A stretch of DNA of 64,000 bases from assembly GCA_934486825.1 (NCBI GenBank), contig CAKSQF010000012.1, positions 14,751 to 78,750 on the forward strand, given 5' to 3'. The notes beneath the pieces are model-generated. The model saw only the letters and a program-made list of their open reading frames with translations. It had not been told where the DNA came from and made no database searches. Shown here one piece after another: positions 21,284 to 51,187 of this stretch. The translations under genes and the position numbers were made by a program. This stretch comes from an uncultured Eubacteriales bacterium. GTDB lineage: Bacteria; Bacillota; Clostridia; Oscillospirales; CAG-272. Every line of letters begins with the position of its first letter. Position 1 is the stretch's first letter.

Positions 21284-21359
21284 GCACCCTTAGCTCAGTT
21301 GGTAGAGCAACTGACTCTTAATCAGTGGGTCCGGGGTTCGAGTCCCCGAGGGTGCACCA
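21284..21359 (+). tRNA. tRNA-Lys (anticodon CTT)
   Basis: Manual cloverleaf: acceptor GCACCCT/AGGGTGC, anticodon loop CTCTTAA, T-loop TTCGAGT, encoded CCA. Confidence 0.9.
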
Positions 21360-35101: not shown

Positions 35102-35647
35102 ATGAAATATCTTATAGCCTCTGATATACACGGCTCGGCGAAATACTGCCGTCTGCTTGTCGAAAGCTTCGAAAAAGAAAAGGCAGACCGCCTGCTTCTG
35201 CTCGGCGATCTGCTCTATCACGGTCCGCGCAACGATCTGCCCGACGGATACGCTCCGAAGGAGGTCATAGCTCTTCTCAATCCGCTTGCGGACAGGATCA
35301 CGGCGGTCAGAGGAAACTGCGACGCCGAGGTTGATCAGATGGTGCTTGATTTTCCGATAACCGCCGATTACGCGATCATAAACGCGGGAGAGCACACGAT
35401 ATTTGCGACGCACGGACATCTGTACACTCCCGATTCGGTAAAAAACCTCAGAGAGGGGGACGTTTTCCTCTACGGACACACCCACATCCCCGACAGCAGT
35501 CTGAAAAACGGGATTTTATGCATCAATCCGGGGTCTGTGTCGATTCCGAAGGCGGGCAGTGCGCACGGATATATCATATTTGACGGGAACGGGTTCATCC
35601 GCAAGGAACTTGAAAGCGGGAAAATTCTCGAAACTATCGGTCTTTGA
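35102..35647 (+). CDS. YfcE/MJ0936-family metallophosphoesterase
   Basis: LIASDIHGS, LLLGDLLYHGPRN, VRGNCD and GHTH motifs. ATG at 35102 is 8-9 nt after GGAAGGA. Confidence 0.8.
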   Translation: MKYLIASDIHGSAKYCRLLVESFEKEKADRLLLLGDLLYHGPRNDLPDGYAPKEVIALLNPLADRITAVRGNCDAEVDQMVLDFPITADYAIINAGEHTIFATHGHLYTPDSVKNLREGDVFLYGHTHIPDSSLKNGILCINPGSVSIPKAGSAHGYIIFDGNGFIRKELESGKILETIGL

Positions 35648-36338
35648 TCGCAAGCGTCCGCAGATACGCCTTCCTTTCATCCGGTATGCGATAGCTTTCG
35701 ATCGCTTTTCTTATCGTTTTGTTGTGCACCCATTTATCAAGACGGCGCTCTTCAAGAAAGACCGCCGCACTACCGTACTGCTTTGCAAGCGCGGTGGCGA
35801 ACAGCCACGCAATCATCATATTGACGTAATATTCATCCGATCTGACAGCAGCAGCCTTTTCAAGGATCGCGGGCGAAAAGCGGTCGTCAAGATAATATCT
35901 CATCAGTATACCCAGTCCGAAGCGGATGGTGTAGGTGTGTTCAGACGCTGTCCACAGCTCCGCTTTTTCAAGCAGGCGGTCGGAATATTCCTTCTTTCCG
36001 AACACCATCGGAGAGAGCTGATCGCAGGTTGCCCAGTTATCGACAAAAGGAAGAAAACGGTCGCAGGCGGCGATCGCACTGTCAAAATCCTTTATCAGCG
36101 ATATTATAAAAGCATGCAGATTTTGCTCTTCAAAATATTTATGCGGCAGATCGGCGAGAAAATCGTCGGTCTGCCCTTTTTTTGCAAGCTCCGAGGCAAA
36201 GGCTCTGACTATCGGCGTGCTCACTCCGATCACCCTCTCCCGATCGACGGTCGGCATAAGCTTTGCCTGAAAACTGCCGTATTCCGGGTCGGCGGCTTCA
36301 AAAAGCCGCTCTCTTATCATTTCGATCTCATTATTCAT
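35634..36338 (-). CDS. AlkD-like HEAT-repeat protein (DNA alkylation repair enzyme family)
   Basis: Start at MNNEIEMIRERLFEAADPEYGSFQAKLMPT with a GAAGGA RBS. Family recognised from the N-terminal FQ.K..P pattern and helical repeats. The upstream part of the 343-aa ORF overlaps the S-component gene and is rejected. Confidence 0.65.
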   Translation of the reverse strand: MNNEIEMIRERLFEAADPEYGSFQAKLMPTVDRERVIGVSTPIVRAFASELAKKGQTDDFLADLPHKYFEEQNLHAFIISLIKDFDSAIAACDRFLPFVDNWATCDQLSPMVFGKKEYSDRLLEKAELWTASEHTYTIRFGLGILMRYYLDDRFSPAILEKAAAVRSDEYYVNMMIAWLFATALAKQYGSAAVFLEERRLDKWVHNKTIRKAIESYRIPDERKAYLRTLAIKDR

Positions 36339-36349
36339 AAAAATTCCTT

Positions 36350-37036
36350 CTAAATCCTGTATCGCATTTTTATCCGCCCGAGCTTTTTGATAAACGAGGG
36401 TGCAAGAGCATAAAGGAAAAGTGCGTTTGAAAAAGCATAAAGCAGGGTAAACGGAAGCGCAGTCACCGTTGCCGTAAGGTAAAGAGCAGGAGAAAAGCTC
36501 CCGCTGTACCACACGACCGTCCACACATCCATTATGAGTGAGAAAACAAATCCGGACAGTCCGCCGAAGCCGACGAGCAGAACACGGTTTTTTTCGAGAA
36601 CCGACGAAAAAAGTCCGCCGAGCAAGCCGATCGTTCCCCATGCAATCATGCGGAAGGGGGTCCACGGTCCCTGCCCGAAGAAAAAATCGGAGACAAATGC
36701 CGAAAATGAGCCGACAAGAAATCCGGTCTGCGGTCCGAGAGTCACTCCGCTGATAATTGCAAGTGCCGCCGTCGGCTTGACAATCGGAACAAATCTGCCG
36801 ATGACCGCAAGTGCGGTCATTACGGCGGACAGGGCGAGCCTTCTTGCTCCCCTGCTCTTCGAATCGTATCCGCAGGCAAAGAGCAACAGCGAAAATGCGG
36901 CGACAAGCGTCGATATCAGCAGATATTTTCGCCCGTCTGCGGCAAAAAGCGATACCGCGAGCAGTGTCGGCATTACGACGAGCAGTAAAACAAGTCCGAG
37001 CACCCGCCTTGTGCGGAAATTACGGATGAGGATCAT
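36350..37036 (-). CDS. ECF transporter substrate-specific (S) component, CbrT-like by context
   Basis: 228 aa with ~6 TM segments and a GQGPWTPFRMIAWG motif. ATGA overlap with the ATPase gene. The operon is under a cobalamin riboswitch. Confidence 0.75.
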   Translation of the reverse strand: MILIRNFRTRRVLGLVLLLVVMPTLLAVSLFAADGRKYLLISTLVAAFSLLLFACGYDSKSRGARRLALSAVMTALAVIGRFVPIVKPTAALAIISGVTLGPQTGFLVGSFSAFVSDFFFGQGPWTPFRMIAWGTIGLLGGLFSSVLEKNRVLLVGFGGLSGFVFSLIMDVWTVVWYSGSFSPALYLTATVTALPFTLLYAFSNALFLYALAPSFIKKLGRIKMRYRI

Positions 37037-38682
37037 TCCGCACTTCCTCCTTCCGGTTCACGCAGACGCGCACATATCTCTCCGACCGTCGTACAGCCGT
37101 CAAGAACACCATGCGACATTGCCGCCGCCGCAGTCGTATAGAATCTGCTGTCGGTGAGAAAGTCGGTCCTGTCCGACCGCGATATTATCCTGCCGTCGAA
37201 AAAGAGCGCACAGCTGTCGGCGGTACAGGCGGCAAATTCGGCGTCATGCGTGACGCAGACGATTGTCATATCATTGCCGTCGCGGAGAGCTTTGAGCGCT
37301 TTTGCAAGCGTCAGCACCGATGCGCGGTCAATCCCCTTTGTCGGCTCGTCGAGCAGGAGAAGCGACGGCTTTTTTGCCGTGACCTTGGCGAGCGCGACAA
37401 GCTGCTGCTCACCCCCCGACAGGTCATACGGATGGCGGTCGTAAAAAGGCGACAGATCAAACGGAAAAGATTTTTCGTCGAATCCCACCTCGGCAAGCTC
37501 CTCTCTTACGCTGTCAAAGACAAAAAGCTCTCTGACATCCTGCGGCATGAGCGAAACGAACGAGGCGAAAAGACTCCCGTTTTTATAATCCCGATGCTTT
37601 TTTCCAAACAGCCGCACACTGCCCGCATAGCAGGGGAGAAGTCCCGCGGCAACCGACAGAAGTGTCGATTTTCCGCATCCGTTGCCGCCGAAAAGACAGA
37701 ATATCTCTCCCCTGTACACCTCAAGTGACAGATCGCGCAGAACATCGGGCAGTTCCCTCCGGTATCTGAAGCAGACATTTTTCAAAGAAAGTGCGATTTC
37801 CCCGCTTTTTACGGGTTTTGCGGATTTTTCGGACACCCGCGACCCCGACGGATGATATTCCGAAATCAGAAAGCTCCTGCCATCCCTTACCGTAAGCGGG
37901 CATCTGCCGCCGTCCCCTTTTTTCAGTTCGTTGTACATACGCACGGGTGCGGGCATCAGTGACAATATCTCCGGCATCCCCGAAAGTCTGCCGCACACCT
38001 CGGACGGCTTGCCGTTTGCGACAACTCTGCCGCCGTCAAGTATAATTATACGATCGGCAAAGGGGAGAAGGCGGTCAAGTCTGTGTTCGGACAGTATGAC
38101 CGTAACTCCGTTTTCGCGATTCAGTCTGACCAGCGTATCGGTAAACGCCGTCGCGGCTATCGGATCGAGCCTTGCCGTCGGCTCATCGACAATAAGAAGC
38201 TCGGGATCACCCGCCATAACCGACGCAAGGCAGAGAAGCTGTTTCTGCCCGCCCGAAAGCTCGCAGACTCTTTTGCCCATTATATCCGAAAATCCGAAAC
38301 AGCCCGCAGTTTCCGCGACCGTTTTTTCAAGCCTTGCGGGATCGGGTCCCATATTCGACAGCGCAAACGATATCTCGTGTCTTACCGTATCGGTGACGAT
38401 CTGCGCCTCGGGATACTGCATGACATACCCGATTGAAAAAGCCGCGCTCTTACCGTCAAGCTCTTCGATCGGCGTGTTTTTGAACAGAATACTACCCGAT
38501 TTCTCCCCGCTCGGGGCAACGGAACTCTTTATAAGCGAAAAAAGAGTGGATTTGCCGCTTCCGGTCGCGCCGCAGACAAGGACAAATTCACCCTCGGAAA
38601 CCGAAAAACCGACCGAGTCAAGCGCGCCACGATCGCTTCCGGCATAGCGGAAGCTCAGATTTTCGACATCAAGTATTTCCAT
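37033..38682 (-). CDS. ECF transporter fused duplicated ATPase (EcfA-EcfA')
   Basis: Two ABC cassettes: Walker A GATGSGKST and GGNGCGKST, signatures LSGGQKQ and LSGGEQQ. ATG at 38682 is 9 nt after GGAGG. Confidence 0.85.
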   Translation of the reverse strand: MEILDVENLSFRYAGSDRGALDSVGFSVSEGEFVLVCGATGSGKSTLFSLIKSSVAPSGEKSGSILFKNTPIEELDGKSAAFSIGYVMQYPEAQIVTDTVRHEISFALSNMGPDPARLEKTVAETAGCFGFSDIMGKRVCELSGGQKQLLCLASVMAGDPELLIVDEPTARLDPIAATAFTDTLVRLNRENGVTVILSEHRLDRLLPFADRIIILDGGRVVANGKPSEVCGRLSGMPEILSLMPAPVRMYNELKKGDGGRCPLTVRDGRSFLISEYHPSGSRVSEKSAKPVKSGEIALSLKNVCFRYRRELPDVLRDLSLEVYRGEIFCLFGGNGCGKSTLLSVAAGLLPCYAGSVRLFGKKHRDYKNGSLFASFVSLMPQDVRELFVFDSVREELAEVGFDEKSFPFDLSPFYDRHPYDLSGGEQQLVALAKVTAKKPSLLLLDEPTKGIDRASVLTLAKALKALRDGNDMTIVCVTHDAEFAACTADSCALFFDGRIISRSDRTDFLTDSRFYTTAAAAMSHGVLDGCTTVGEICARLREPEGGSAE

Positions 38683-39536
38683 CTGCACGCACCTCCGATC
38701 TCATAAAAAACAGGCAAAAACGAAATTGCCGCACAGCATGCGGTCGCCGTATAAAAAAGCGGTCCGTCGTGCGGAAGGCTGACCGTCGGATAAAAGGTCG
38801 CCGAAAACACCCCTCCGAAGCCTCCGACCGCAACGCAGGCGGTCGCCGCAACAGTCAGCGATATGATAACGGCGTCTCCGATATGCATCGGGAAACGCTC
38901 GGCGAAGGTCGGTCTGCCGATGCCGTAGCCGCGCGCACTCATGCTGTCTGCGGTCGTTACCCCGTTTTCGATCGCCCATGATGCGACCGACATGAATATC
39001 CGGAGCTTTGCGCGGAAAAAATCAATGAGATTGCCGTCCTTATACAGCCCGAGCGTTTTCTGTGCGTCGGAAGTCCGCCTGAACTGCTCTCTGAAAAGCG
39101 GGACAAATCTCACCGTCATCGAAAAAAGCAGCGACAGTCTGGGCGACAGTCTCCGAAGCAGATAGGCTGTCCGTTCCGCGTCGGTTATTTTTGAAAAAAC
39201 GGCGAAACGGCAGACCGCCGAAAGGATCACCGCCGCCGAGGTCATCCCGTAAAGCAGATCCTCAAGCGTTATGCGCATATCGTTGACAAAAAAAAGAACT
39301 GTCGCGCCGTTGTGCGAAAAAATCGGATTTATTGCCGACAAAATGCAGAAAAACGCCGCTGTTCCGACTGTTTTCCCGACAATAGCGGCGCGGTCTGTGT
39401 AAAAAAGCAGGTGCAGATATGCTCCCGCAAACGATATTCCCGCAACGCGCGGGTCAAAAATAAAAACAGGTATGCAGATCGCCGCCGCGTAATAGACAAA
39501 AAGCGCGGTCGGGCAACGGTCCTCAAAGCTTTTCAC
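38655..39536 (-). CDS. ECF transporter transmembrane (T) component, CbiQ family
   Basis: 293 aa multi-TM with RFVPLFREQFRRTSDAQKTLG and SMSARGYG motifs. GTG start 6 nt after GGGAGG. Confidence 0.8.
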   Translation of the reverse strand: MKSFEDRCPTALFVYYAAAICIPVFIFDPRVAGISFAGAYLHLLFYTDRAAIVGKTVGTAAFFCILSAINPIFSHNGATVLFFVNDMRITLEDLLYGMTSAAVILSAVCRFAVFSKITDAERTAYLLRRLSPRLSLLFSMTVRFVPLFREQFRRTSDAQKTLGLYKDGNLIDFFRAKLRIFMSVASWAIENGVTTADSMSARGYGIGRPTFAERFPMHIGDAVIISLTVAATACVAVGGFGGVFSATFYPTVSLPHDGPLFYTATACCAAISFLPVFYEIGGACRWKYLMSKI

Positions 39537-41179
39537 TGCGTACCTCCCCCGTCATCGGCGTAAACGCGGCTCACATCCCTGCCGAAATCCAGGGTATAAT
39601 GCCATTCGACAAGATCGCCGTCCGACAGAACAAATTCGTCGCATCCGACCGACGGCATAACGCCGTTTACAAAATAGACCCAGCCCGACAGATCGCCGTA
39701 AACGTGATCCCTTATAAACGCGATCGACAAAACATATCCGTTTCTTTCGTCGAACTGTATTTTTCCCCGCTTTGCGGCTTCAACAAGCAGATCAAGCACG
39801 GTTTCTCCCTCGTGTATATCGATCGCCATGTCTTTTATAATTACTCCGTCCTTCGGAACAGCATCGTCGCCGCTGTCGGCAATAACGTCGCAGCGTATCG
39901 AAATCCTTACCGTTCCGAAGCCCTTTTCGGCGGCATCCGTTTCCGAATAATAGCCACCCGGAGATCTGATGTCGGTAAAGGCGGTCGCCGCGATTATCAG
40001 CGCCGCGGCAAGGATCAGCGGCAGAATATGCTTCGGTCCCCTTTTTCCTTTGACATAAAGTATCAGGCAGACCGCCGCCGCAAGAAGTGCGACCGACACG
40101 CCGACCACGAGCTTGTATATCGGTACCTTATGACCGGAATCGGTCTTTCCGCCGTCCGTGACCGTCGGTGCTTTTTCGGTCGTCGGCTGGCGCACTGTCG
40201 TCGGAGCCTTGGTTGTCACACGGTCGTCGGTGACCGGAGGCGGCTCGGGAGCGCCGTCCTCATACATGTAAAACGTTCCCCCGTCGGTGTGGAAAAGCTT
40301 TGCGGAAACAAGCGCGCAGAGCGCCTGAACGGTCGCCGTTTTGTTTGAAGCTCCGTCCGGGAAATGCGCAAATCCGCCGTCTGCCGTCCGATAGGAGAGA
40401 AGCCTGTCGGTCATCGGCAGGAAGCTGTCGGAGCTGTCGGGATCGACCCCGATTGCGTGAAGCGCGATCATCACCTGAGCAAGGCTCTCGCAGTTTTCCT
40501 TTCCGAACGAGGCAAATCCGCCGTTTTCAAGCTGTCTTGCCGACAAAAATGCCGCCGCTTTGTCGATCGCATCCGAAACATCGCTTCTGTTTTCCCTGTG
40601 CGGTGCGATCGCCTGCATCACCATAGCGGTGGTATCGACATCGGGATTTGTCCCGATGACCGCCCAGCCGCCCGACGGAAGTGCCGCCCCGAGAATTTCG
40701 TCAAGCAGGTCGGACGCCGTATATGCCTCCGAGCCTGCACCGTTATTTATCAGATGAAGGGCAAAAACAAGGCTCATTATTCCCTGCCTGCCCGCGGTTC
40801 TGTCAACCGCATCCCCGACTTTTTCGGGTCTGCCCGAAAAGATGAGTGCAAGGCTTACGCGCTGTATCGCAACCGCCCCTTCGATCTCCCCGTCCGAAAG
40901 CCTTTTTTCAAGCTTTTCGGCATACGCCGAAAGGTCGATTCCGAAATGAGCTCTCGAAAGAGCGATTGCATACCAGTCTGTCGAAAGTCCCGCGCCGTCG
41001 GCTATCTTTTCGGACAGTCCGGAAAGAGAGGAAGCCGAAAGCTCTTCGGCGATTCTGTCAACGGTCGTTGCGATTTCGCTGTCGTAATCGGTGATTTCAG
41101 CCGCACTCCGCGCCATGGGTGCGACGATAAGACAGACTGCCGCCGCGACTGCGGACAAAAATCCGACATACTTTTTCAT
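39533..41179 (-). CDS. Membrane-tethered transcobalamin-like protein (prenyltransferase-like alpha/alpha barrel + TM hairpin + DUF4430)
   Basis: Signal peptide. GGW/NGGF/DGGF repeats (residues ~150-290). Thr/Pro linker. Two TM helices. C-terminal GWVYFVNG...PSVGCDEFVLSDGDLVEWHY. ATG at 41179 is 8 nt after GGGAGGG. Confidence 0.7.
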   Translation of the reverse strand: MKKYVGFLSAVAAAVCLIVAPMARSAAEITDYDSEIATTVDRIAEELSASSLSGLSEKIADGAGLSTDWYAIALSRAHFGIDLSAYAEKLEKRLSDGEIEGAVAIQRVSLALIFSGRPEKVGDAVDRTAGRQGIMSLVFALHLINNGAGSEAYTASDLLDEILGAALPSGGWAVIGTNPDVDTTAMVMQAIAPHRENRSDVSDAIDKAAAFLSARQLENGGFASFGKENCESLAQVMIALHAIGVDPDSSDSFLPMTDRLLSYRTADGGFAHFPDGASNKTATVQALCALVSAKLFHTDGGTFYMYEDGAPEPPPVTDDRVTTKAPTTVRQPTTEKAPTVTDGGKTDSGHKVPIYKLVVGVSVALLAAAVCLILYVKGKRGPKHILPLILAAALIIAATAFTDIRSPGGYYSETDAAEKGFGTVRISIRCDVIADSGDDAVPKDGVIIKDMAIDIHEGETVLDLLVEAAKRGKIQFDERNGYVLSIAFIRDHVYGDLSGWVYFVNGVMPSVGCDEFVLSDGDLVEWHYTLDFGRDVSRVYADDGGGTQ

Positions 41180-41229
41180 TATCATTCCCTCCCATTCCGT
41201 AATTTCCGTAATTATACCGACCCTTCGGT

Positions 41230-42009
41230 TCAGTCCTCCCTGCTGCGGCGTCTGCCGACCGCAACGGCGGTTCCCGCAAACATGAGCGCAATGAAGGTGA
41301 TAACAAACGGAATAAATGTCATATCGCCGGTCTTGGGTACATCGGTCACGCCGACAAGTGCCACCGGCGGAACGATAGCGCTCCCCTCAACCGATGCGCT
41401 TATGACATGATTGCCCGCTTTAAGCGACGCAAGCTCGACCTTGCCCGATTCGTCGGTTTTCAGCTCCGTCGCCTTGCCGTCAATATAAATAACCGCACCT
41501 GCGACAGGAGAAACGACGGTATTGTAGTTGTCATCATAGCCGAGCCTGCTCAGCATAAGGGCTACCTTCTCTCCCTCAACGGCGGATACCGTAATCTTAT
41601 CGAAATAGCAGTATGCGTCCGAGAAGTTCTGCGTATCGGTGTAGATGTAAGCGGCAACATAGTCGCCGTTCTTAACCTCGTCGAAAAGCCCGGAAGCCGG
41701 GACGTTGTTTACGCAGTAGCCGACATTCGATGTCGAAACGCCCCACAGCTTTGTGATATAACGGCCGTACTGTCCGTCAGCCGTTTCGTATCCGTCCTTT
41801 TTGTACTTTTCGTGTGTAATTACAAGCACGTCGTTGACGGTAAGCTTGCCGTCGCCGTCGGCGTCGGTAAGCGCAACCTTTTCGGCTGACAGCTCAAGCT
41901 TGCCGTTTGCGACCGTAACGTAGACCGACGCTTCGTCGGCAGACAAAGCGGGCATCATCAGTCCGACCGCAATGGCAACAACGGTCAGCAGACAAATAAA
42001 TTTTTTCAT
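41230..42009 (-). CDS. Sortase-anchored surface protein with an N-terminal DUF4430-like domain
   Basis: Signal peptide. VYVTVANG...TVNDVL...YITKLWGV...VKNGDYVAAYIY pattern. C-terminal sorting signal VPKTGD + hydrophobic helix + RRRSRED. Confidence 0.7.
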   Translation of the reverse strand: MKKFICLLTVVAIAVGLMMPALSADEASVYVTVANGKLELSAEKVALTDADGDGKLTVNDVLVITHEKYKKDGYETADGQYGRYITKLWGVSTSNVGYCVNNVPASGLFDEVKNGDYVAAYIYTDTQNFSDAYCYFDKITVSAVEGEKVALMLSRLGYDDNYNTVVSPVAGAVIYIDGKATELKTDESGKVELASLKAGNHVISASVEGSAIVPPVALVGVTDVPKTGDMTFIPFVITFIALMFAGTAVAVGRRRSRED

Positions 42010-42293
42010 GACAGATCATTTCCTTTCTTGTTTTTTTCGGCAAGCCGCCTTGCCCGGGCGGCACGTGCGCGTTTTTCGCGGTTTTTCTCAATGCGGTCGC
42101 CGCTTCTTGCCTCTTTAAGACCCGCCGCTTCAAGTGCGCGCGGCCACGGTCCGAGAAACGCCTTGATAGCGACCACCTCGGCTTCTTCGAAATCCGAACG
42201 CTTCGGAAGACGCGACTCGCCTGATGCCCGGAGCTTTTCCTGCTTTTCGACAAGCAGTCGGGTACAGTCGGCAAAGTCATATTTCTTCTTCAT
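42006..42293 (-). CDS. Small basic protein (95 aa) with an FLGPWPRALEAAGLK motif
   Basis: First ORF after the riboswitch, with an ATGA overlap to the next gene. The motif resembles the homing-endonuclease-associated repeat as I recall it. Lys/Arg-rich tail. Confidence 0.55.
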   Translation of the reverse strand: MKKKYDFADCTRLLVEKQEKLRASGESRLPKRSDFEEAEVVAIKAFLGPWPRALEAAGLKEARSGDRIEKNREKRARAARARRLAEKNKKGNDLS

Positions 42294-42390
42294 TTCCAAA
42301 GTCACAACCCTTCAGTTTCCGAATAAATGCAAAAACGCTTTCTGACGGCATTTTCGGGGTGCCGACAAAAAGCGCAACAATGACAGGCTG

Positions 42391-42639: not shown

Positions 42640-42668
42640 ATTTTACCACAGACAAAGAGAATTGTCAA
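42640..42668 (-). promoter_or_regulatory. Promoter of the riboswitch-controlled operon
   Basis: Minus strand TTGACA-17 bp-TAAAAT, about 12 nt upstream of the aptamer P1. Confidence 0.65.
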
Positions 42669-42718: not shown

Positions 42719-44941
42719 TTACCAGACGGGAGTGATCTTCATCGACTGCACGCCGAAACATTCGCCGGTGACACGCAGTCCCGCACGTCCCGAAACATTG
42801 CCCATCGGGATGTCGTATGAGAAAAGCTCCTTCCCATCGACCGAAACCGCGATCCTCTGCCCCTTTGCGGCAACCGAAACATCGTGCTCAAATCTGCCGC
42901 AATCGTCAAGCGTATAGTTTACGAGTATTTTTTCTCCGTAATTCCATTCGATAAGCGATATGTTTCCGCAACCGATGCGCACCGAATATCCGTAGCCCGC
43001 ACGCGCCGGCTGTGAGCCGAAATAGCTCTCCTTCTGCATCCTGAACATGAACTCACAGCCGCCGGTCGAATTCATGTAACCGGTCATATGAGCGTCGATG
43101 CGGTAGTCGGTCCAGCCGTGTCCGCCGACGTATACAAAACCGTCGTTTTCCGAGCAGGAATAGCCGACCTCCTTGCTTATCATACTGCCGCGACCCTTCC
43201 AGCCGAATATATCGGCGTCATGGCAGAGCCTGCCGTCCTCCACGAGAGTAAGTTTTTCGACGTCCTCAACCTCTGCAAGCTCAAAGCTGTCAATCACAAA
43301 GTCGCATCCCGCTCTGACGACCAGCTTCCCGAGTCCGCCGCAGAGCTTCACCCTGCCGAGCAGGACCTTTGCCGAGCCGTCATGATCGTAGGCGGTCGGT
43401 GCGGCTGCAACCAGCTCTCTGCCGTTTACATCGACTCTCACACCCGCGTCTGCCTGTCTGACATGCGCGCATACCGTGTACAGTCCGTCCGCCTTTACGT
43501 TTATCGGGAAGGTGAAAACGCTTCCTACGGTTGCCTTTACGCAGTAAATATCTCTGCCGTTTTCGATGCATGCAAGCTTTGCGTGATCCTCGATTGCATG
43601 AACCGCATCCATGCGTCCCGGAACCGCCTTTGTGACAAATTTGTCACTGCTTCCGTCCGAATATGACGAAAATCCGACAAATCCGACTGTCGCGTTTTCG
43701 GGAAGGAGCGAAAATCCGATCCTTCCTCCCTTGCAGGACGAGTTCCACTTCAGAAATTCCTGATTGTTGTTGAGCATCAGAAGCATCTTTCCGTCGTGAT
43801 GTCTCGTAAAGCGGTAAGAGTTGTTCGAACGCATTACAATATTGGAAGGAAGTTCGCCGATCGCAAGCACCCTGCCGCCCTCGGTGACCCGCACGGTACG
43901 TCCGTTTACCGCGATCCTGCCCTTGCCGCCCGCATATACAAGCTCAAAATCCTCTCCCTTTGCGTTGACGTTTATCTCCGCCGTATAGAGAGCGGGTGTC
44001 GCCTTTTTCGTAAGCAGCAGTTTTTCGCCGTCCTTTTCGGAGCCTGCAAGCTCATCGGTGCCGCGCACCGAATAATCGGCAAGTGACGGCTTTTCCTGAT
44101 CCCACCATATCGTGTTCGCATACATTCTCGAACCGTTGAAGAAGAGTCTGTCAACATTCATGCTGCGGTGATGCGGTTCTTTGACAAGCTCATACGTGTG
44201 ATATATGATGTAAGCACCGTCCATGTCGGGCGCAAGCGCGCTTGAGCTGTGTCCGAGGGCATGAAAATCGTCGCCGACCTCGGCAAGCACCACCCGGTTC
44301 TTCATGTTGGTATAGCCGGACACGGGTGAACTGTCGGATACCGAGTAGGCAACCTTGTAGCACTTGCTGAGCAGATGGTTGCCCGTATATGTAAGGAAGT
44401 ATTTGCCGCCGTGGCGAAGCACCATCGGACCCTCGGTCCAGCCGTTCAGACAGCTCTCGCCGATCGGCGTTCCGGGCAGATCGACCGTTTTCGGGTCGGA
44501 CATTGTATGAAAATTGATTCCGTTCCCTTCCGCGCGGTAAAAATAGCTTCTGCCGTCGTCGTCGATGAAGAAGGAGCCGTCGATGCGCTGACCGAATCTT
44601 CCGGTGACCTGCTTGTACGGACCCTCGGGCTTCGACGCTTCAAGGATGAAATGCCCGTTTCCGTGCGGAGATGTACACATATAGAATTTGCCCTTGTTGT
44701 AGATGACCTCGGGCGCATAACCGCCGATTATGTCGGGCAGTTTGCACGCAACTCCGAGATATGTCCAGTCAACAAGGTTATCGGAGCGCCAGCAGTGCAG
44801 ATCATGGGTCATTTTCCCCATTGAAAAGAAACCGCCTGCCGAAAAATAAAGATAATACCGTCCGTCGTATCTCATTACAAACGGATCGCCTGTGTTGCCC
44901 GCGTCGGGCGCCTTGAACGGGTTTCTGTACATATTTTCCAT
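42719..44941 (-). CDS. GH43-like beta-propeller glycosidase with C-terminal beta-sandwich domains
   Basis: N-terminus MENMYRNPFKAPDAGNTGDPFVMRYDGRYYLYFS, with later GYAPEVIYNKGKFYM and IDGSFFIDDDG (propeller Asp/Glu motifs). ATG at 44941 preferred over the GTG at 44971. Confidence 0.7.
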   Translation of the reverse strand: MENMYRNPFKAPDAGNTGDPFVMRYDGRYYLYFSAGGFFSMGKMTHDLHCWRSDNLVDWTYLGVACKLPDIIGGYAPEVIYNKGKFYMCTSPHGNGHFILEASKPEGPYKQVTGRFGQRIDGSFFIDDDGRSYFYRAEGNGINFHTMSDPKTVDLPGTPIGESCLNGWTEGPMVLRHGGKYFLTYTGNHLLSKCYKVAYSVSDSSPVSGYTNMKNRVVLAEVGDDFHALGHSSSALAPDMDGAYIIYHTYELVKEPHHRSMNVDRLFFNGSRMYANTIWWDQEKPSLADYSVRGTDELAGSEKDGEKLLLTKKATPALYTAEINVNAKGEDFELVYAGGKGRIAVNGRTVRVTEGGRVLAIGELPSNIVMRSNNSYRFTRHHDGKMLLMLNNNQEFLKWNSSCKGGRIGFSLLPENATVGFVGFSSYSDGSSDKFVTKAVPGRMDAVHAIEDHAKLACIENGRDIYCVKATVGSVFTFPINVKADGLYTVCAHVRQADAGVRVDVNGRELVAAAPTAYDHDGSAKVLLGRVKLCGGLGKLVVRAGCDFVIDSFELAEVEDVEKLTLVEDGRLCHDADIFGWKGRGSMISKEVGYSCSENDGFVYVGGHGWTDYRIDAHMTGYMNSTGGCEFMFRMQKESYFGSQPARAGYGYSVRIGCGNISLIEWNYGEKILVNYTLDDCGRFEHDVSVAAKGQRIAVSVDGKELFSYDIPMGNVSGRAGLRVTGECFGVQSMKITPVW

Positions 44942-45004
44942 ATAGATAACACTTCCCTTCGGAAATCCCACCCTCTTGCATGGGAATACTGATTTTTCAC
45001 GGTC

Positions 45005-45033: not shown

Positions 45034-45207
45034 TAGTTTTTTGTATATTGTCACAAAAAATAATTTTCAAAAATTTTTTAAAATTTTCAGATTTTTTGTC
45101 ACACCTTATTCTTTTTTTACGTCCTACTGTGTGAAAAGAAAAATTCATATATGTTCGTTTCGCAAAACGGATGCGTCCCGCATTTTTGTAATCAAAGGAG
45201 AACAGCA

Positions 45208-46641
45208 ATGAAAAAAACACTATCGGTTATTCTTTCGCTGGTAATGGCGTTCACGGCAATCTGCGCCGTCGCCGCCTTGCCTTCATTCGCCGCCGACGGC
45301 AACGGATACAAAAACAAATACAGAGATCGGGCAACTTGGTCCAGTCCGTTTTACGGTCGCTGGTCATTCAACGCAGGTCCGATCACCGCCTACGTCGAAA
45401 AAAGCGAAATAGACAAATTTGCGGGCGAAGGCGGCATCGGCGCTTACAGCTCGCGTCCCAAGGAGCTGCCTGTCGTATATCTGCTGATAAAGCATTTCGG
45501 AATCAGCAAGGAACAGTTCACGACGGCTGTCAGAAACGGCGCAAAGGATTATCTCCTTCTCGACGAAGACAAGGAGTTTGACTTTTATTCAAACTGCTCC
45601 TTCACCGACGAAATGATCGAAATCCTCTATTCGGGTGACGAGGATCTCATAAAACAGACGCTTCACCGCCCGACGGTCTTCTACTACAAAGGACAGCTCT
45701 ACACATTCAAGGAGCTTCGTTCCGTCGAATACACCCCGACCGCAACACTCCGGGAAATGCAGAAAAGCGGCGGGCTTGACGATTATCTGCACACCCTTTT
45801 CGTCGCGGCAGCCTTAGGCGGAAGCAGGGGGAACGTAAAGTTTTACAGACTTTTCGATGACAGAGCTTTCGATCGGTACTACGACTTTTTCGGCAACAGC
45901 TGCGACGAGACATTTGATTATATAACGCAGATCTACAAACGTCTCGGTCAGGAGCCTCCCTTCGATATGACCGTATCCCCCGACTACGGAAACACATACG
46001 ACATGACCGAAAAGACAGACATTGAATTTTCCGCATACCGCCGTTTTTACGACCTGTGGTCGGTAAACATCGGTCCGGTCATGGCATGTCTCGGGATAGA
46101 CAGTCCGGAAAGATTCCTGTCACCGGAGTATGCCTACACCCCGGAATCGGAGGCACAGCTTCCGCTTGTGTATCAGCTTATAAAACGTTTCAAAATCAGC
46201 AAAGACCGCTTTAAAAAAGCGGTCAGGAGCGGCTCCAAAAAATATGTTCTCGAAGACGGCACAAAAGCGGATCCCGCTTCAAGCTGCACCTTCACCGACG
46301 AAATAATCGAAATTCTCTATTCGGGTGACGAGGATCTTATAAAGCGGACGCTCCACCGCCCGACAGTCTTTTATTACAAAGGACAGCTCTACACCTTCGG
46401 TGAACTGATGCATTACAGCCTGCCGCTCGGAGAGATGCAGAAAAACGGCGGACTTGACGATTATCTGCAAACGGTCTTTCTCACAAGCAGGCTTGCCGAC
46501 AGCTACGGCGGGCTTGACGGCTATGGCGACATTTACTTTCATAACTACGACTGCTACCGCAAAAACGATGTTGTCGCATGCATAAAGGACATTTACGAAC
46601 GTCTCGGACAAAAGCCTCCGTTTGAAACGGATCCGAAATAA
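45208..46641 (+). CDS. Secreted protein of unknown function, two copies of a ~210-aa domain (paralogue family member 1)
   Basis: Signal peptide MKKTLSVILSLVMAFTAICAVAALPSFA and AAAGGAG RBS. Internal duplication with FTDE(M/I)IEILYSGDEDLIK(Q/R)TLHRPTVFYYKGQLYTF present twice. Confidence 0.75.
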   Translation: MKKTLSVILSLVMAFTAICAVAALPSFAADGNGYKNKYRDRATWSSPFYGRWSFNAGPITAYVEKSEIDKFAGEGGIGAYSSRPKELPVVYLLIKHFGISKEQFTTAVRNGAKDYLLLDEDKEFDFYSNCSFTDEMIEILYSGDEDLIKQTLHRPTVFYYKGQLYTFKELRSVEYTPTATLREMQKSGGLDDYLHTLFVAAALGGSRGNVKFYRLFDDRAFDRYYDFFGNSCDETFDYITQIYKRLGQEPPFDMTVSPDYGNTYDMTEKTDIEFSAYRRFYDLWSVNIGPVMACLGIDSPERFLSPEYAYTPESEAQLPLVYQLIKRFKISKDRFKKAVRSGSKKYVLEDGTKADPASSCTFTDEIIEILYSGDEDLIKRTLHRPTVFYYKGQLYTFGELMHYSLPLGEMQKNGGLDDYLQTVFLTSRLADSYGGLDGYGDIYFHNYDCYRKNDVVACIKDIYERLGQKPPFETDPK

Positions 46642-46667
46642 CAAAAAGGAGGGCAAACAGACAGGAA

Positions 46668-47444
46668 ATGAAAAAGATCATATCGGTTTTTCTCTCGCTT
46701 GCAACGACGCTCGGCACGGCAATGCTGTTATGCTTCTCCGTACCGACGGTAACGGCGTTTGATTATACCAAGAGCGAATGCCCGTACAATCACATAGTAA
46801 ACGACTGCCTCGGCTATTACGGGCTGTGGTCGGTCAGTGCGGGACCCGTATACCGATATGTCGGAAAATCGGAAACGGACAAATTCGCAATAAGCTATTA
46901 CGACAATTACCCGTACAGCGATCTGCCGCTTGTCTACCTTATGATAAAAAAATTCGGCATATCGAAGGAGAAATTCACAGCAGCATGCGAGGAGGGCAAA
47001 AAGACCCTCCGACCGTCCGACAGCGAAGTCTCCGATGATTATTACGAAAACTGCATATTTACCTCCGAGATCATAGAAATACTCTACTCGGGCGACGAAA
47101 ATCTCATAAGAAAAACGCTCCACCGCCCGGAAGTATTTTATTTCGACGGCAGACTTTACACGCTCGGCAAGCTTGCCGGTCTGTCTGCCGAAACGCTCGG
47201 AAAAATGCGGGAAAACGGCGACCTGGACGAATATCTGCGCGACAGCTTCATTATGTCGGTACTGCTCAGGCGCTACGACGGCGGGGACATGTACACCAAA
47301 AAAACACTGTCCTTCTGCAATTTCGCCGGAAAATCCTACGATCCGGTCGATTCGACCGTTAAATCAATATACCAAAAGCTCGGGCAGGAGCCGCCGTTCG
47401 ATCTGACGGCGACCGCGAAGCCCTACGACATTTATACAAATTAA
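46668..47444 (+). CDS. Secreted protein, single copy of the same domain (family member 2)
   Basis: Signal peptide. WSVSAGPV, LPLVYLMIKKFGISKEKF, FTSEIIEILYSGDENLIRKTLHRPEVFYFDGRLYTL and YQKLGQEPPFD match member 1. Confidence 0.75.
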   Translation: MKKIISVFLSLATTLGTAMLLCFSVPTVTAFDYTKSECPYNHIVNDCLGYYGLWSVSAGPVYRYVGKSETDKFAISYYDNYPYSDLPLVYLMIKKFGISKEKFTAACEEGKKTLRPSDSEVSDDYYENCIFTSEIIEILYSGDENLIRKTLHRPEVFYFDGRLYTLGKLAGLSAETLGKMRENGDLDEYLRDSFIMSVLLRRYDGGDMYTKKTLSFCNFAGKSYDPVDSTVKSIYQKLGQEPPFDLTATAKPYDIYTN

Positions 47445-47464
47445 AGAAGTAAGGAGATTCAATC

Positions 47465-48391
47465 ATGAAAAGAACAATATCTGCTTTCCTCGCCATAATA
47501 TTTACAGTCATTTTCGCCGCAACAATGGCGGTTTCCTGCAACAGAACCGACGCCGGTTCAACGACAGCCGGCAATACTGCCGACACTTCCGCAAGCATCG
47601 GAACGACAGCCGCTCCTTCGACAACGGTCAACCCGACAACGACACTGCCGACCACCTCAAAGGACCCGGCATCCTCCACTACGGCAAGAACCGGCTTTGT
47701 TGAGCCGGAGGGCACGCCCGATCCGATCGCAGAGCTTGACCCGATCTTCACCGTCCCCGCAAAGCGCCCGCCGAACACACTGCGCAATGCGGAAGAGCTT
47801 CGCCGCCGCTATCCCGACTATCTCTACGATTACACCGTTTTCAACAAATATGTGGGCAAATGGAAGGTTCACAACATAGTCAGCGAATACATAAAAAGAG
47901 ACGACTACGATCAGCTTCCGATCGCCTACATAATCATACAGGACCTTCTCAAAAACCCGACACAGGACGCACTCGACTACATAAAGCAGTGCAGAGAGAA
48001 CCCCGACTGCGGTGAATCGGAGCTCTGGCTGATGAATCAGTATGTGAACATCATAATCAGCCGCTCGGTATCCGAGATCAGTTACAGCTCCAAAAATTAC
48101 AGCTCGTACGGCTCAAGCCCGACCGATCTGCTCTATCTGCAGATGTACGGCATCGAAGGATATGAAAATCTGCTCAAAAAGCAGCTGAAATCGGTTACAA
48201 CCTACTATTACGACGGCGAGCTTTACACGATATACGATCTGAACGACGAAAAGGTCGTCAGCGCGGAGCTTCTCGGCGAAATGGTCTCGAAGGGCATGCT
48301 TGAGGACTACATCAGAACGATGGAAAAGCTCGAAAGAGGGATCGACGTCAAAAAACTCGTATCGGCAGTCAAAACACGTGCCGGACTGTAA
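47465..48391 (+). CDS. Lipoprotein with a Thr/Ser-rich linker and a divergent copy of the same domain (family member 3)
   Basis: Lipobox MAVSCN and AAGGAG RBS. LPIAYIIIQDL ... LLKKQLKSVTTYYYDGELYTIYDL aligns with the conserved core of members 1 and 2. Confidence 0.7.
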   Translation: MKRTISAFLAIIFTVIFAATMAVSCNRTDAGSTTAGNTADTSASIGTTAAPSTTVNPTTTLPTTSKDPASSTTARTGFVEPEGTPDPIAELDPIFTVPAKRPPNTLRNAEELRRRYPDYLYDYTVFNKYVGKWKVHNIVSEYIKRDDYDQLPIAYIIIQDLLKNPTQDALDYIKQCRENPDCGESELWLMNQYVNIIISRSVSEISYSSKNYSSYGSSPTDLLYLQMYGIEGYENLLKKQLKSVTTYYYDGELYTIYDLNDEKVVSAELLGEMVSKGMLEDYIRTMEKLERGIDVKKLVSAVKTRAGL

Positions 48392-50587: not shown

Positions 50588-50663
50588 GGAAGTTTAGCTC
50601 AGCTGGGAGAGCATCTGCCCTACAAGCAGAGGGTCATAGGTTCGAGCCCTATAACTTCCACCA
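50588..50663 (+). tRNA. tRNA-Val (anticodon TAC)
   Basis: Manual cloverleaf: acceptor GGAAGTT/AACTTCC, anticodon loop CCTACAA (note C at position 33), encoded CCA. Confidence 0.8.
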
Positions 50664-50689
50664 ACAGTTCCGGCAATAGTCGGAGCTTT

Positions 50690-50766
50690 GGCCTGGTAGC
50701 TCAGTTGGTTAGAGCGCTAGCCTGTCACGCTAGAGGTCGTGGGTTCGAGCCCCATCCGGGTCGCCA
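50690..50766 (+). tRNA. tRNA-Asp (anticodon GTC)
   Basis: Acceptor GGCCTGG/CCGGGTC with two G-T pairs, anticodon loop CTGTCAC, T-loop TTCGAGC, encoded CCA. Confidence 0.85.
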
Positions 50767-50797
50767 ACGACCGACGCAGAAGCGTCGGTCGCTATTT

Positions 50798-50873
50798 GCC
50801 TCTGTAGCTCAGTTGGTAGAGCGAGGGACTGAAAATCCCTGTGTCGTTGGTTCGATTCCGACCGGAGGCACCA
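50798..50873 (+). tRNA. tRNA-Phe (anticodon GAA)
   Basis: Acceptor GCCTCTG/CGGAGGC, anticodon loop CTGAAAA, T-loop TTCGATT, encoded CCA. Confidence 0.9.
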
Positions 50874-50947
50874 ATCCCGAGAGGGGTTGATGAGGACTTT
50901 GGACACGAGTCCGACAACCCGCCGAAAGTTGTAAAATATCGGCATCC

Positions 50948-51023
50948 GCGGATTTAGCTCATTTGGTAGAGCGCCACCTTGCCAAGGTGGAGGTGGCGGG
51001 TTCGAGCCCCGTAATCCGCTCCA
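50948..51023 (+). tRNA. tRNA-Gly (anticodon GCC)
   Basis: Acceptor GCGGATT/AATCCGC, anticodon stem CCACC/GGTGG with loop TTGCCAA, encoded CCA. Confidence 0.9.
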
Positions 51024-51113
51024 AAAAAGGAAGTCCATGGCAAAGGCGCAGGAAGAGAAAGCCGTACTGAGCCGTGGATTTTTTCATAGAACGCCGTCGT
51101 AAAGACGGCGGAC

Positions 51114-51187
51114 GGCGCCATAGCCAAGCGGTAAGGCAGAGGTCTGCAAAACCTTTATCCCCGGTCCGATTCCGGGTGGCGCCTCCA
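51114..51187 (+). tRNA. tRNA-Cys (anticodon GCA)
   Basis: Acceptor GGCGCCA/TGGCGCC, anticodon loop CTGCAAA, T-arm CCCGG-TCCGATT-CCGGG (unusual C at position 55), encoded CCA. Confidence 0.8.

Follow-up and report, generated by a model that had tools for sequence, protein, structure and literature searches.

A transcobalamin-like protein divided by a transmembrane hairpin and its cobalamin-riboswitch operon in an uncultured Clostridia bacterium

Introduction

Bacterial proteins that join an alpha/alpha toroid to an SLBB domain and carry signal peptides and Gram-positive anchors were described by Burroughs, Balaji, Iyer and Aravind (2007; PMC1796856). Their genes lie in operons with a CbiO-like ATPase, a CbiQ-like membrane protein and often a second extracellular partner; the proteins were predicted to scavenge vitamin B12, and were proposed as the source of animal transcobalamin (PMC1796856). 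In L. sakei, Lsa1836-1840 form an energy-coupling factor (ECF)-like system in which the parts that resemble transcobalamin alpha (Lsa1840) and beta (Lsa1839) are separate proteins (10.1101/864751), and a structure of the vitamin B12 transporter ECF-CbrT is available (6fnp; PMC5997447). A survey of human gut genomes published in 2019 named the identification of B12 transporters as an open problem (PMC6593275). Here we report the computational analysis of a gene for a transcobalamin-like protein (hereafter the binder), located in a stretch of 64,000 nt (the window) from an uncultured Eubacteriales bacterium of the class Clostridia (assembly GCA_934486825.1, contig CAKSQF010000012.1, positions 14,751 to 78,750). 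By analogy with the animal B12 carriers, the binder is probably a membrane-tethered, two-lobed corrinoid catcher that serves a dedicated ECF corrinoid importer.

Results

All positions refer to the window and, unless stated otherwise, to its minus strand. The transcobalamin-like open reading frame (39533..41185) comprises 550 amino acids (aa), and residue numbers are counted from the ATG at 41185. Translation probably begins at the ATG at 41179, as given in the first-pass annotation of this DNA, because a GGGAGGG Shine-Dalgarno sequence is well placed about 8 nt ahead of this codon and badly placed, just 1-2 nt ahead, for the ATG at 41185, and because homologs of the binder begin at MK, like the product of the ATG at 41179 (MKK...). 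The protein would then have 548 aa.

The same annotation had recognised a signal peptide, about 270 aa of repeats, a Thr/Pro-rich linker, two hydrophobic helices separated by KGKRGPKH and a DUF4430-like domain, all of which were found by hydropathy, motifs and Pfam. The predicted signal peptide (aa 1-29, 41099..41185; MIMKKYVGFLSAVAAAVCLIVAPMARSAA) is indicated by hydropathy and by a fall of the AlphaFold2 confidence at aa 23-29, and all homologs have a hydrophobic segment at the N-terminus. An N-terminal lipoprotein anchor was considered and rejected, since AAVC is a poor lipobox and its Cys is missing in homologs. The alpha domain (aa 30-305, 40271..41098) is an alpha/alpha toroid of 12-13 helices with GG(W/F) repeats (PSGGWAV, ENGGFAS, ADGGFAH) and Q-x-x-x-AL repeats (VMQAIAP, AQVMIAL, VQALCAL). 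Its best Pfam match is SQHop_cyclase_C (85 residues, aa 169-253; E 4.9e-10, 39.4 bits vs. a cutoff of 26.1); the matches to SQHop_cyclase_N and Prenyltrans are weaker and fall below the curated cutoffs.

Between the alpha domain and the first transmembrane helix runs a disordered, Thr/Pro/Ser-rich leash (aa 306-355, 40121..40270), whose Thr/Pro-rich linker reads EPPPVTDDRVTTKAPTTVRQPTTEKAPTVTD and whose predicted local distance difference test (pLDDT) score is below 50 at aa 312-353. Transmembrane helix 1 (aa 356-378, 40052..40120) and transmembrane helix 2 (aa 387-403, 39977..40027), both assigned from hydropathy and the AlphaFold2 model, enclose the predicted cytoplasmic loop KGKRGPKH (aa 379-386, 40028..40051; family motif [KG]-K-R-x-x-K-N-[YF]). 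A short tether (aa 404-423, 39917..39976), with low AlphaFold2 confidence at aa 407-421, leads to the beta domain (aa 424-535, 39581..39916), a DUF4430 / SLBB beta-grasp. The Pfam match to DUF4430 (PF14478) covers aa 460-531 and positions 1-71 of the 72 in the profile (E 1.4e-13, 51.5 bits vs. a cutoff of 23.8), and PF14478 is carried by all full-length homologs; judged by this match, the binder is a member of DUF4430 / SLBB.

The AlphaFold2 model was built from an alignment of 29 sequences and had a mean pLDDT of 81.8, with low confidence confined to the ends of the chain, to aa 312-353 in the leash and to aa 407-421 in the tether. It consists of 12-13 N-terminal helices, an antiparallel hairpin (H356-378 and H384-403) and a C-terminal mixed sheet with one helix. 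The predicted strands of the beta domain (424-431, 448-457, 478-481, 484-488, 501-506 and 525-531) and its helix (463-474), with pLDDT values of 79-94, form a beta-grasp. The comparison with transcobalamin, intrinsic factor and haptocorrin that had been proposed as a check gave a positive result: in a Foldseek search of the PDB, places 1-14 were all taken by haptocorrin (4kki), transcobalamin (8ixu, 2bb6, 4zrp, 7qb*) and intrinsic factor (3kq4, 2pmv), with E values of 3e-6 to 6e-5 and target-normalised TM-scores of 0.44-0.56. These alignments extend over 505-565 columns and therefore cover both domains, with the beta domain of the binder aligned to the beta domains of the three carriers. The matches that follow are terpene cyclases and prenyltransferase beta subunits, which align over about 220-360 columns, to the toroid alone.

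The hairpin is a constant feature of the family. A first homolog search yielded 37 full-length relatives (31-99% identity), each with a signal peptide and two internal hydrophobic helices. When 1.84 billion cluster representatives were searched with a profile, 18,632 matched at E <= 1e-3 and, of these, 5,375 also at E <= 1e-30; none of the top 150 scored less than 594 bits, and nearly all of them matched over the full profile length. Among 144 new representatives of 50%-identity clusters, 141 have exactly two internal transmembrane segments and a loop of 5-12 aa, and the other three are giant multidomain proteins without the hairpin. In 178/178 aligned family members, the stretch that connects the alpha domain to the beta domain contains exactly two transmembrane segments. 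Three giant secreted proteins, P0067 (2179 aa), P0082 (1873 aa) and P0116 (1733 aa), each contain 4-6 stretches that match the family profile and several SGW motifs, have no internal transmembrane hairpin, and may be multi-copy toroid/SLBB surface proteins.

On average, the hairpin loop has 8.1 residues, of which 3.8 are K or R and 0.03 are D or E (178-179 sequences). By the positive-inside rule, this K/R-rich and nearly acid-free loop strongly predicts that the loop is cytoplasmic and that both globular parts lie outside the cell. The first-pass annotation had proposed this topology, and it is borne out by the loop charge across the family and by the antiparallel hairpin in the model. The transmembrane helices have a mean column identity of 0.37-0.38; the values for the signal peptide, the alpha domain and the beta domain are 0.31, 0.56 and 0.62, respectively. 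Because of their poor conservation, the helices look like plain anchors. A role as a conserved docking surface is unsupported, as they are conserved no better than the signal peptide. About 120 residues, including the leash and the two transmembrane helices, separate the domains of the binder. Across the family, the leash from the alpha domain to transmembrane helix 1 varies from 21 to 209 aa (median 63) and is rich in T, S, A, E and P; the tether from transmembrane helix 2 to the beta domain always measures 9-23 aa (median 19).

In the 178 sequences, toroid residues D184 (in DVDTTAM), H144, H274, E233 and Q237 are conserved to at least 98%. The beta domain has C432, Y484, G497, G501 and W502 as invariant residues, SGW500-502 is near-invariant, and N507, D524 and Y530 are conserved to at least 98%. 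These highly conserved residues of the toroid and the beta lobe are candidate ligand contacts. C432 is unlikely to be only a disulfide partner, because it is kept in 178/178 sequences, including those that have lost C515 (89%), its possible partner. Cys is the residue that undergoes ligand exchange at cobalt in BtuM, and His has this place in transcobalamin; that C432 might be a cobalt ligand like the Cys of BtuM is speculation.

The binder gene is the third gene of a tightly packed operon with 4-nt overlaps at three junctions. A sigma-70-type promoter-like site (42640..42668; TTGACA-17-TAAAAT with extended TG), identified only as a consensus match of 11/12, lies directly upstream of the riboswitch and just past the terminator-like hairpin of a GH43 gene. 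It is followed by a cobalamin riboswitch aptamer (RF00174; 42491..42633), which matched the full model (1-189) with 55.8 bits vs. a gathering threshold of 31.5. The first gene after the riboswitch encodes a protein of 99 aa (42006..42305), and the second a wall-anchored, Ig-like (immunoglobulin-like) surface protein of 259 aa (41230..42009). Downstream of the binder gene are the genes for an ECF T component of the CbiQ family (38655..39536), whose start overlaps the binder stop codon by 4 nt, for a fused ECF A-A' ATPase (37033..38688) with two ABC_tran domains (ECF_ATPase_1 and ECF_ATPase_2, E ~1e-86), and for a CbrT-like ECF S component (36350..37036) with Pfam matches to ECF-ribofla_trS and ECF_trnsprt. 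The ECF complex that had been noted beside the binder is accounted for, by Pfam and NCBIfam, by T, A-A' and S genes directly downstream, which together represent a dedicated (group I) ECF set. The best PDB sequence match of the S component is 6fnp_A (E 4.1e-6, over aa 64-211), which makes it a homolog of CbrT. The corrinoid reading is strengthened by these two sequence matches, because RF00174 heads the operon and the S component has its best match in ECF-CbrT.

A species-level scan with one genome per species gave at least 529 confirmed stretches that encode relatives of the binder; the context counts that follow cover the best 80 of these loci, and the riboswitch count covers 82 loci. The best 80 loci are all from Clostridia, and their hosts are Ruminococcus flavefaciens, Oscillospiraceae, Acutalibacteraceae, Lachnospiraceae, Ruminiclostridium and Christensenella, mostly as metagenome-assembled genomes from gut and rumen. 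Of the 65 loci whose sequence extends far enough, 54 have the genes for T, A-A' and S directly downstream of the binder gene and on its strand, and three have them upstream. A homolog of the 259-aa protein is encoded directly upstream of the binder in 70/76 loci, and homologs of the 99-aa protein were found by tblastn in 41/80 loci, always adjoining binder genes or ECF genes. With a custom covariance model made from four aptamers confirmed by Rfam, a cobalamin riboswitch on the same strand was detected in 58/82 loci, almost always upstream of binder or ECF genes. In the databases, family members are named 'hypothetical protein' or 'DUF4430 domain-containing protein'. Nine cassettes contain two cobalamin riboswitches (L003 (8644-8796), L041, L042, L052, L056, L061, L075, L078 and L083); the first precedes the pair of surface or binder genes, and the second is located between the binder and the ECF genes, often with the 99-aa gene after it.

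The 259-aa protein has a signal peptide, two beta-sandwich Ig-like domains, a VPKTGD sortase-type motif, a transmembrane segment and an RRRSR tail, and its calcium-loop-like motif DxDxDGxLTxND is invariant. Its AlphaFold2 model (pLDDT 88.8) matched only generic Ig folds in Foldseek. It is predicted to be a wall-attached surface protein, because it bears a sortase-type anchor that is exchanged for other wall modules in homologs, which carry LPXTG, LysM, dockerin or SLH modules in place of VPKTGD. The idea that it is a second SLBB paralog was rejected: hhalign aligned its family with the binder family over the signal peptides only, Pfam assigned it only the Ig-like CarboxypepD_reg or DUF4198, and the Foldseek matches were those already mentioned. 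The 99-aa protein is conserved, lacks a signal peptide and has a basic C-terminal tail; it showed a weak match to a single HNH_repeat (helix-turn-helix-like; PF18780, E 1.8e-5), just under the cutoff.

One locus, L087 (4389-6567), encodes the binder as two genes that overlap by 17 nt. The product of gene 1 (542 aa) consists of a signal peptide, a toroid, a long Ser/Gly leash, one transmembrane segment and an acidic tail of 40 aa, and that of gene 2 (188 aa) of an N-terminal transmembrane segment or lipobox and DUF4430. The upstream partner in L087 is a DUF4430-like stretch fused to a dockerin, and no ECF genes are adjacent. Judged from gene structure, this is the only locus that looks like a real two-gene version. 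L084 (4670-6531) and L086 (212-1968) were rejected as clean alpha/beta splits: the alpha part lies upstream in two reading frames and is followed by transmembrane helix 2 and the beta domain, which yields an apparent stand-alone DUF4430 protein. As the alpha part is present in other frames, both loci look like frameshifts or pseudogenes, and the L084 form, because it was seen on 14 contigs from several sources, may be a genuine pseudogene and not a fault of the assembly. Joining gene pairs of the L087 or L. sakei type would give the order alpha, transmembrane helix, loop, transmembrane helix, beta; the hairpin can therefore plausibly be read as a fusion scar, left when an alpha gene whose product ends in an anchor was joined to a beta gene whose product starts with a signal anchor. 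Alternatively, and also plausibly, the two-gene forms are fissions; the direction could be either way.

Among the neighbouring genes, the GH43 glycoside hydrolase gene directly upstream of the operon (42719-44971) encodes 750 aa with a long C-terminal extension. After the S component, and on the same strand, lies a DNA_alkylation (AlkD-like HEAT repeat) open reading frame (35634-36665); its real start is probably the Met at ~36341, since the long reading frame would overlap ecfS by ~300 nt. In L006 the gene next after the binder encodes a DNA_alkylation homolog, and in L050 another one adjoins the cassette. On the plus strand, three tandem paralogous secreted proteins of 496, 258 and 308 aa (45151-48391) have no Pfam match and share the module …IEILYSGDE(D/N)LI(K/R)KTLHRP.VFYY.G.LYT…, which is duplicated within the first paralog. 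The plus strand also contains five tRNA genes within 600 nt (50588-51184) and one isolated tRNA gene (21284-21356).

Discussion

The transcobalamin-like interpretation given in the first-pass annotation is supported, in that it agrees with every computational test that was run. Operons under cobalamin riboswitches can be expressed when cellular cobalamin is low, and the riboswitch of the window would permit expression of the binder operon under such conditions. The signal peptide would export the binder and the helical hairpin would hold it in the membrane, with the beta-grasp lobe no more than about 20 residues away from the membrane surface and the toroid lobe on a long flexible leash that could reach into the cell wall and sweep the wall space. 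If the binder works like transcobalamin, intrinsic factor and haptocorrin, its two lobes would sandwich one corrinoid, and the closed complex would form beside the CbrT-like S component, since the beta lobe is held close to the membrane. The S component would then take over the ligand and be toppled by the T/A-A' module with ATP. The wall-anchored 259-aa Ig-like protein may be an outer layer for capture or scaffolding.

Several observations weigh against the view of the binder as a corrinoid catcher. Its likeness to transcobalamin is at fold level only (10-12% identity in the Foldseek alignments, at the TM-scores of 0.44-0.56 given above). Cobalamin_bind (PF01122) gave no Pfam match to the binder at E <= 0.01, and profile searches against PDB sequences with the whole family or the beta domain returned no transcobalamin, intrinsic factor or haptocorrin chain even at E <= 10; they returned terpene cyclases (whole family) or chance matches instead of cobalamin carriers. 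As no match was found at the sequence level, the link to the cobalamin carriers rests on the Pfam DUF4430 match and the fold; on the evidence of the model, the binder shares the two-domain fold of the eukaryotic Cobalamin_bind family but is not a sequence member. The closest relatives (L001, L004, L005 and L006; 44-48% identity) are without adjacent ECF genes and retain the riboswitch, the 99-aa gene, the 259-aa gene and the binder gene. The coupling of the binder to this transporter is therefore not obligatory, and the binder module can stand apart. Also to be counted here are the retention of the D-x-D of the class II terpene cyclase motif DxDD in the alpha domain and the experimental tie of the L. 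sakei operon to heme, both of which are taken up below. The genes that flank the cassette in the four relatives (Metallophos and Peptidase_M24) show synteny with the window, so that the ECF genes were either gained by insertion in the lineage of the window or lost in L001, L004, L005 and L006.

The lobes need not form a single clamp: the DUF4430 lobe alone could bind the corrinoid, with the toroid binding a wall polysaccharide or another ligand or acting as a spacer. Such independence would suit the highly variable length of the leash (21-209 aa), the many SLBB proteins without a toroid reported by Burroughs et al. (PMC1796856), and the stand-alone proteins with a transmembrane segment and DUF4430 that are encoded directly ahead of the ECF genes for T, A-A' and S at two loci, both of which look frameshifted. 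We consider it unlikely, however, given that toroid and beta domain occur together in 178/178 relatives, that the toroid is about as conserved as the beta domain (0.56 vs. 0.62) and has conserved polar residues (D184, E233, Q237, H144 and H274), and that the whole-chain Foldseek matches are two-domain cobalamin carriers. That the ligand is heme or another tetrapyrrole would be in line with the L. sakei operon, which has the same order of alpha, beta, T, A-A' and S and has been tied experimentally to heme uptake (10.1101/864751); the cobalamin riboswitch at the head of the window operon and of most related loci, the best match of the S component to CbrT, and the absence of heme-related genes near the binder in the window make it quite improbable here.

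An enzymatic toroid, terpenoid-cyclase/prenyltransferase-like or corrinoid-modifying and located outside the cytoplasm, with DUF4430 as an accessory, is suggested by the sequence-level matches to squalene-hopene cyclase and drimenyl diphosphate synthase repeats and by the alignment of D182-x-D184, including the at least 98% conserved D184, with the first two Asp of DxDD. The site of the binder reads D182-V-D184-T185, and its last Asp is missing: in the family consensus DVD(V/T)TAM, the third Asp of the motif is Thr or Val. NCBIfam cyclase models score far below their curated cutoffs (e.g. 29.7 bits vs. 431), the binder has one toroid where class II cyclases use two, the toroid would lie outside the cell without isoprenoid diphosphate available, and the operon is transport-only and B12-regulated. 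By these features the binder is very probably not a terpene cyclase, and an enzymatic role of this kind seems extremely improbable.

The corrinoid-catcher reading can be extended considerably. In its widest form, a whole ECF branch in hundreds of gut and rumen Clostridia species would depend on an obligatory, membrane-stitched catcher of the transcobalamin fold, whose beta lobe would dock on the CbrT-like S component and hand over the corrinoid, possibly after cobalt ligand exchange by Cys432 or His144/His274; the family would be the living prokaryotic form behind the animal B12 carriers and the main route of B12 competition for Gram-positive commensals. Taken as a whole, this extension is doubtful.

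The capture of B12 and other cobamides by Gram-positive bacteria of the gut and rumen is poorly understood, and the cassette is a concrete, widespread and testable candidate. ECF transporters are textbook ATP-binding cassette importers that work without a substrate-binding protein, a rule that would be qualified if the binder is functional. In that case, the two-lobe B12 clamp of the human carriers would gain a bacterial model, and the binder gene would serve as a marker of cobamide scavenging in Clostridia. Its design, split by a hairpin, is an example of two separately anchored subunits becoming one chain.

The general concept of a bacterial transcobalamin-like B12 scavenger was already predicted in 2007 and is 19 years old. 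The DUF4430 domain of the binder corresponds to the transcobalamin-like SLBB clade of that work (PMC1796856), and the binder shares with the proteins described there both domains, the signal peptide, the operon with CbiO/CbiQ-type genes and the extracellular partner. The text of that paper, figures aside, has no mention of a transmembrane hairpin between the domains, and riboswitch control and a CbrT-like S component, both present in the window operon, are absent from the description it gives. In the literature searched, no paper was found on the hairpin form, on its control by a riboswitch or on how widespread it is; this is weak evidence, because most subscription journals lie outside that literature.

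With Lsa1836-1840 of L. sakei, the window shares the gene order (alpha, beta, ECF-T, fused ATPases, S), the extracellular binder parts and the idea of an external catcher; it differs in that the L. sakei proteins are two polypeptides with heme as the reported ligand, whereas the binder is one chain through the membrane and the riboswitch points to corrinoids. ECF-CbrT of Lactobacillus delbrueckii (6fnp; PMC5997447) has the same architecture of a CbrT-type S component, T and A-A'. It is described as working without an external binding protein, and the words 'accessory', 'operon' and 'riboswitch' do not occur in the text of that paper; the ECF module of the window, unlike ECF-CbrT, is dedicated and encoded together with two extracytoplasmic proteins.

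External capture and hand-off of corrinoids under B12-riboswitch control has analogous counterparts in BtuG and BtuH of Bacteroides (PMC6143338, PMC8941943) and in BtuF of BtuCD-F. These proteins are lipid-anchored or periplasmic and serve a TonB-dependent or type II ABC transporter, whereas the binder has a transmembrane hairpin and is paired with an ECF transporter. Their folds are reportedly unrelated to that of the binder. Transcobalamin, intrinsic factor and haptocorrin (2bb6, 2pmv, 4kki) are like the binder in having an N-terminal toroid of the alpha6/alpha6 type followed by a beta-grasp, and in being extracytoplasmic. The animal carriers are soluble, with a short flexible linker between the domains, whereas the binder has a disordered leash of 50 aa and two transmembrane helices in this place and, unlike them, is bacterial and encoded with an ECF importer. 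The notable features of the present cassette are the size of the family, the coupling to a riboswitch-controlled importer of the ECF-CbrT type, and the asymmetric tethering of the two lobes.

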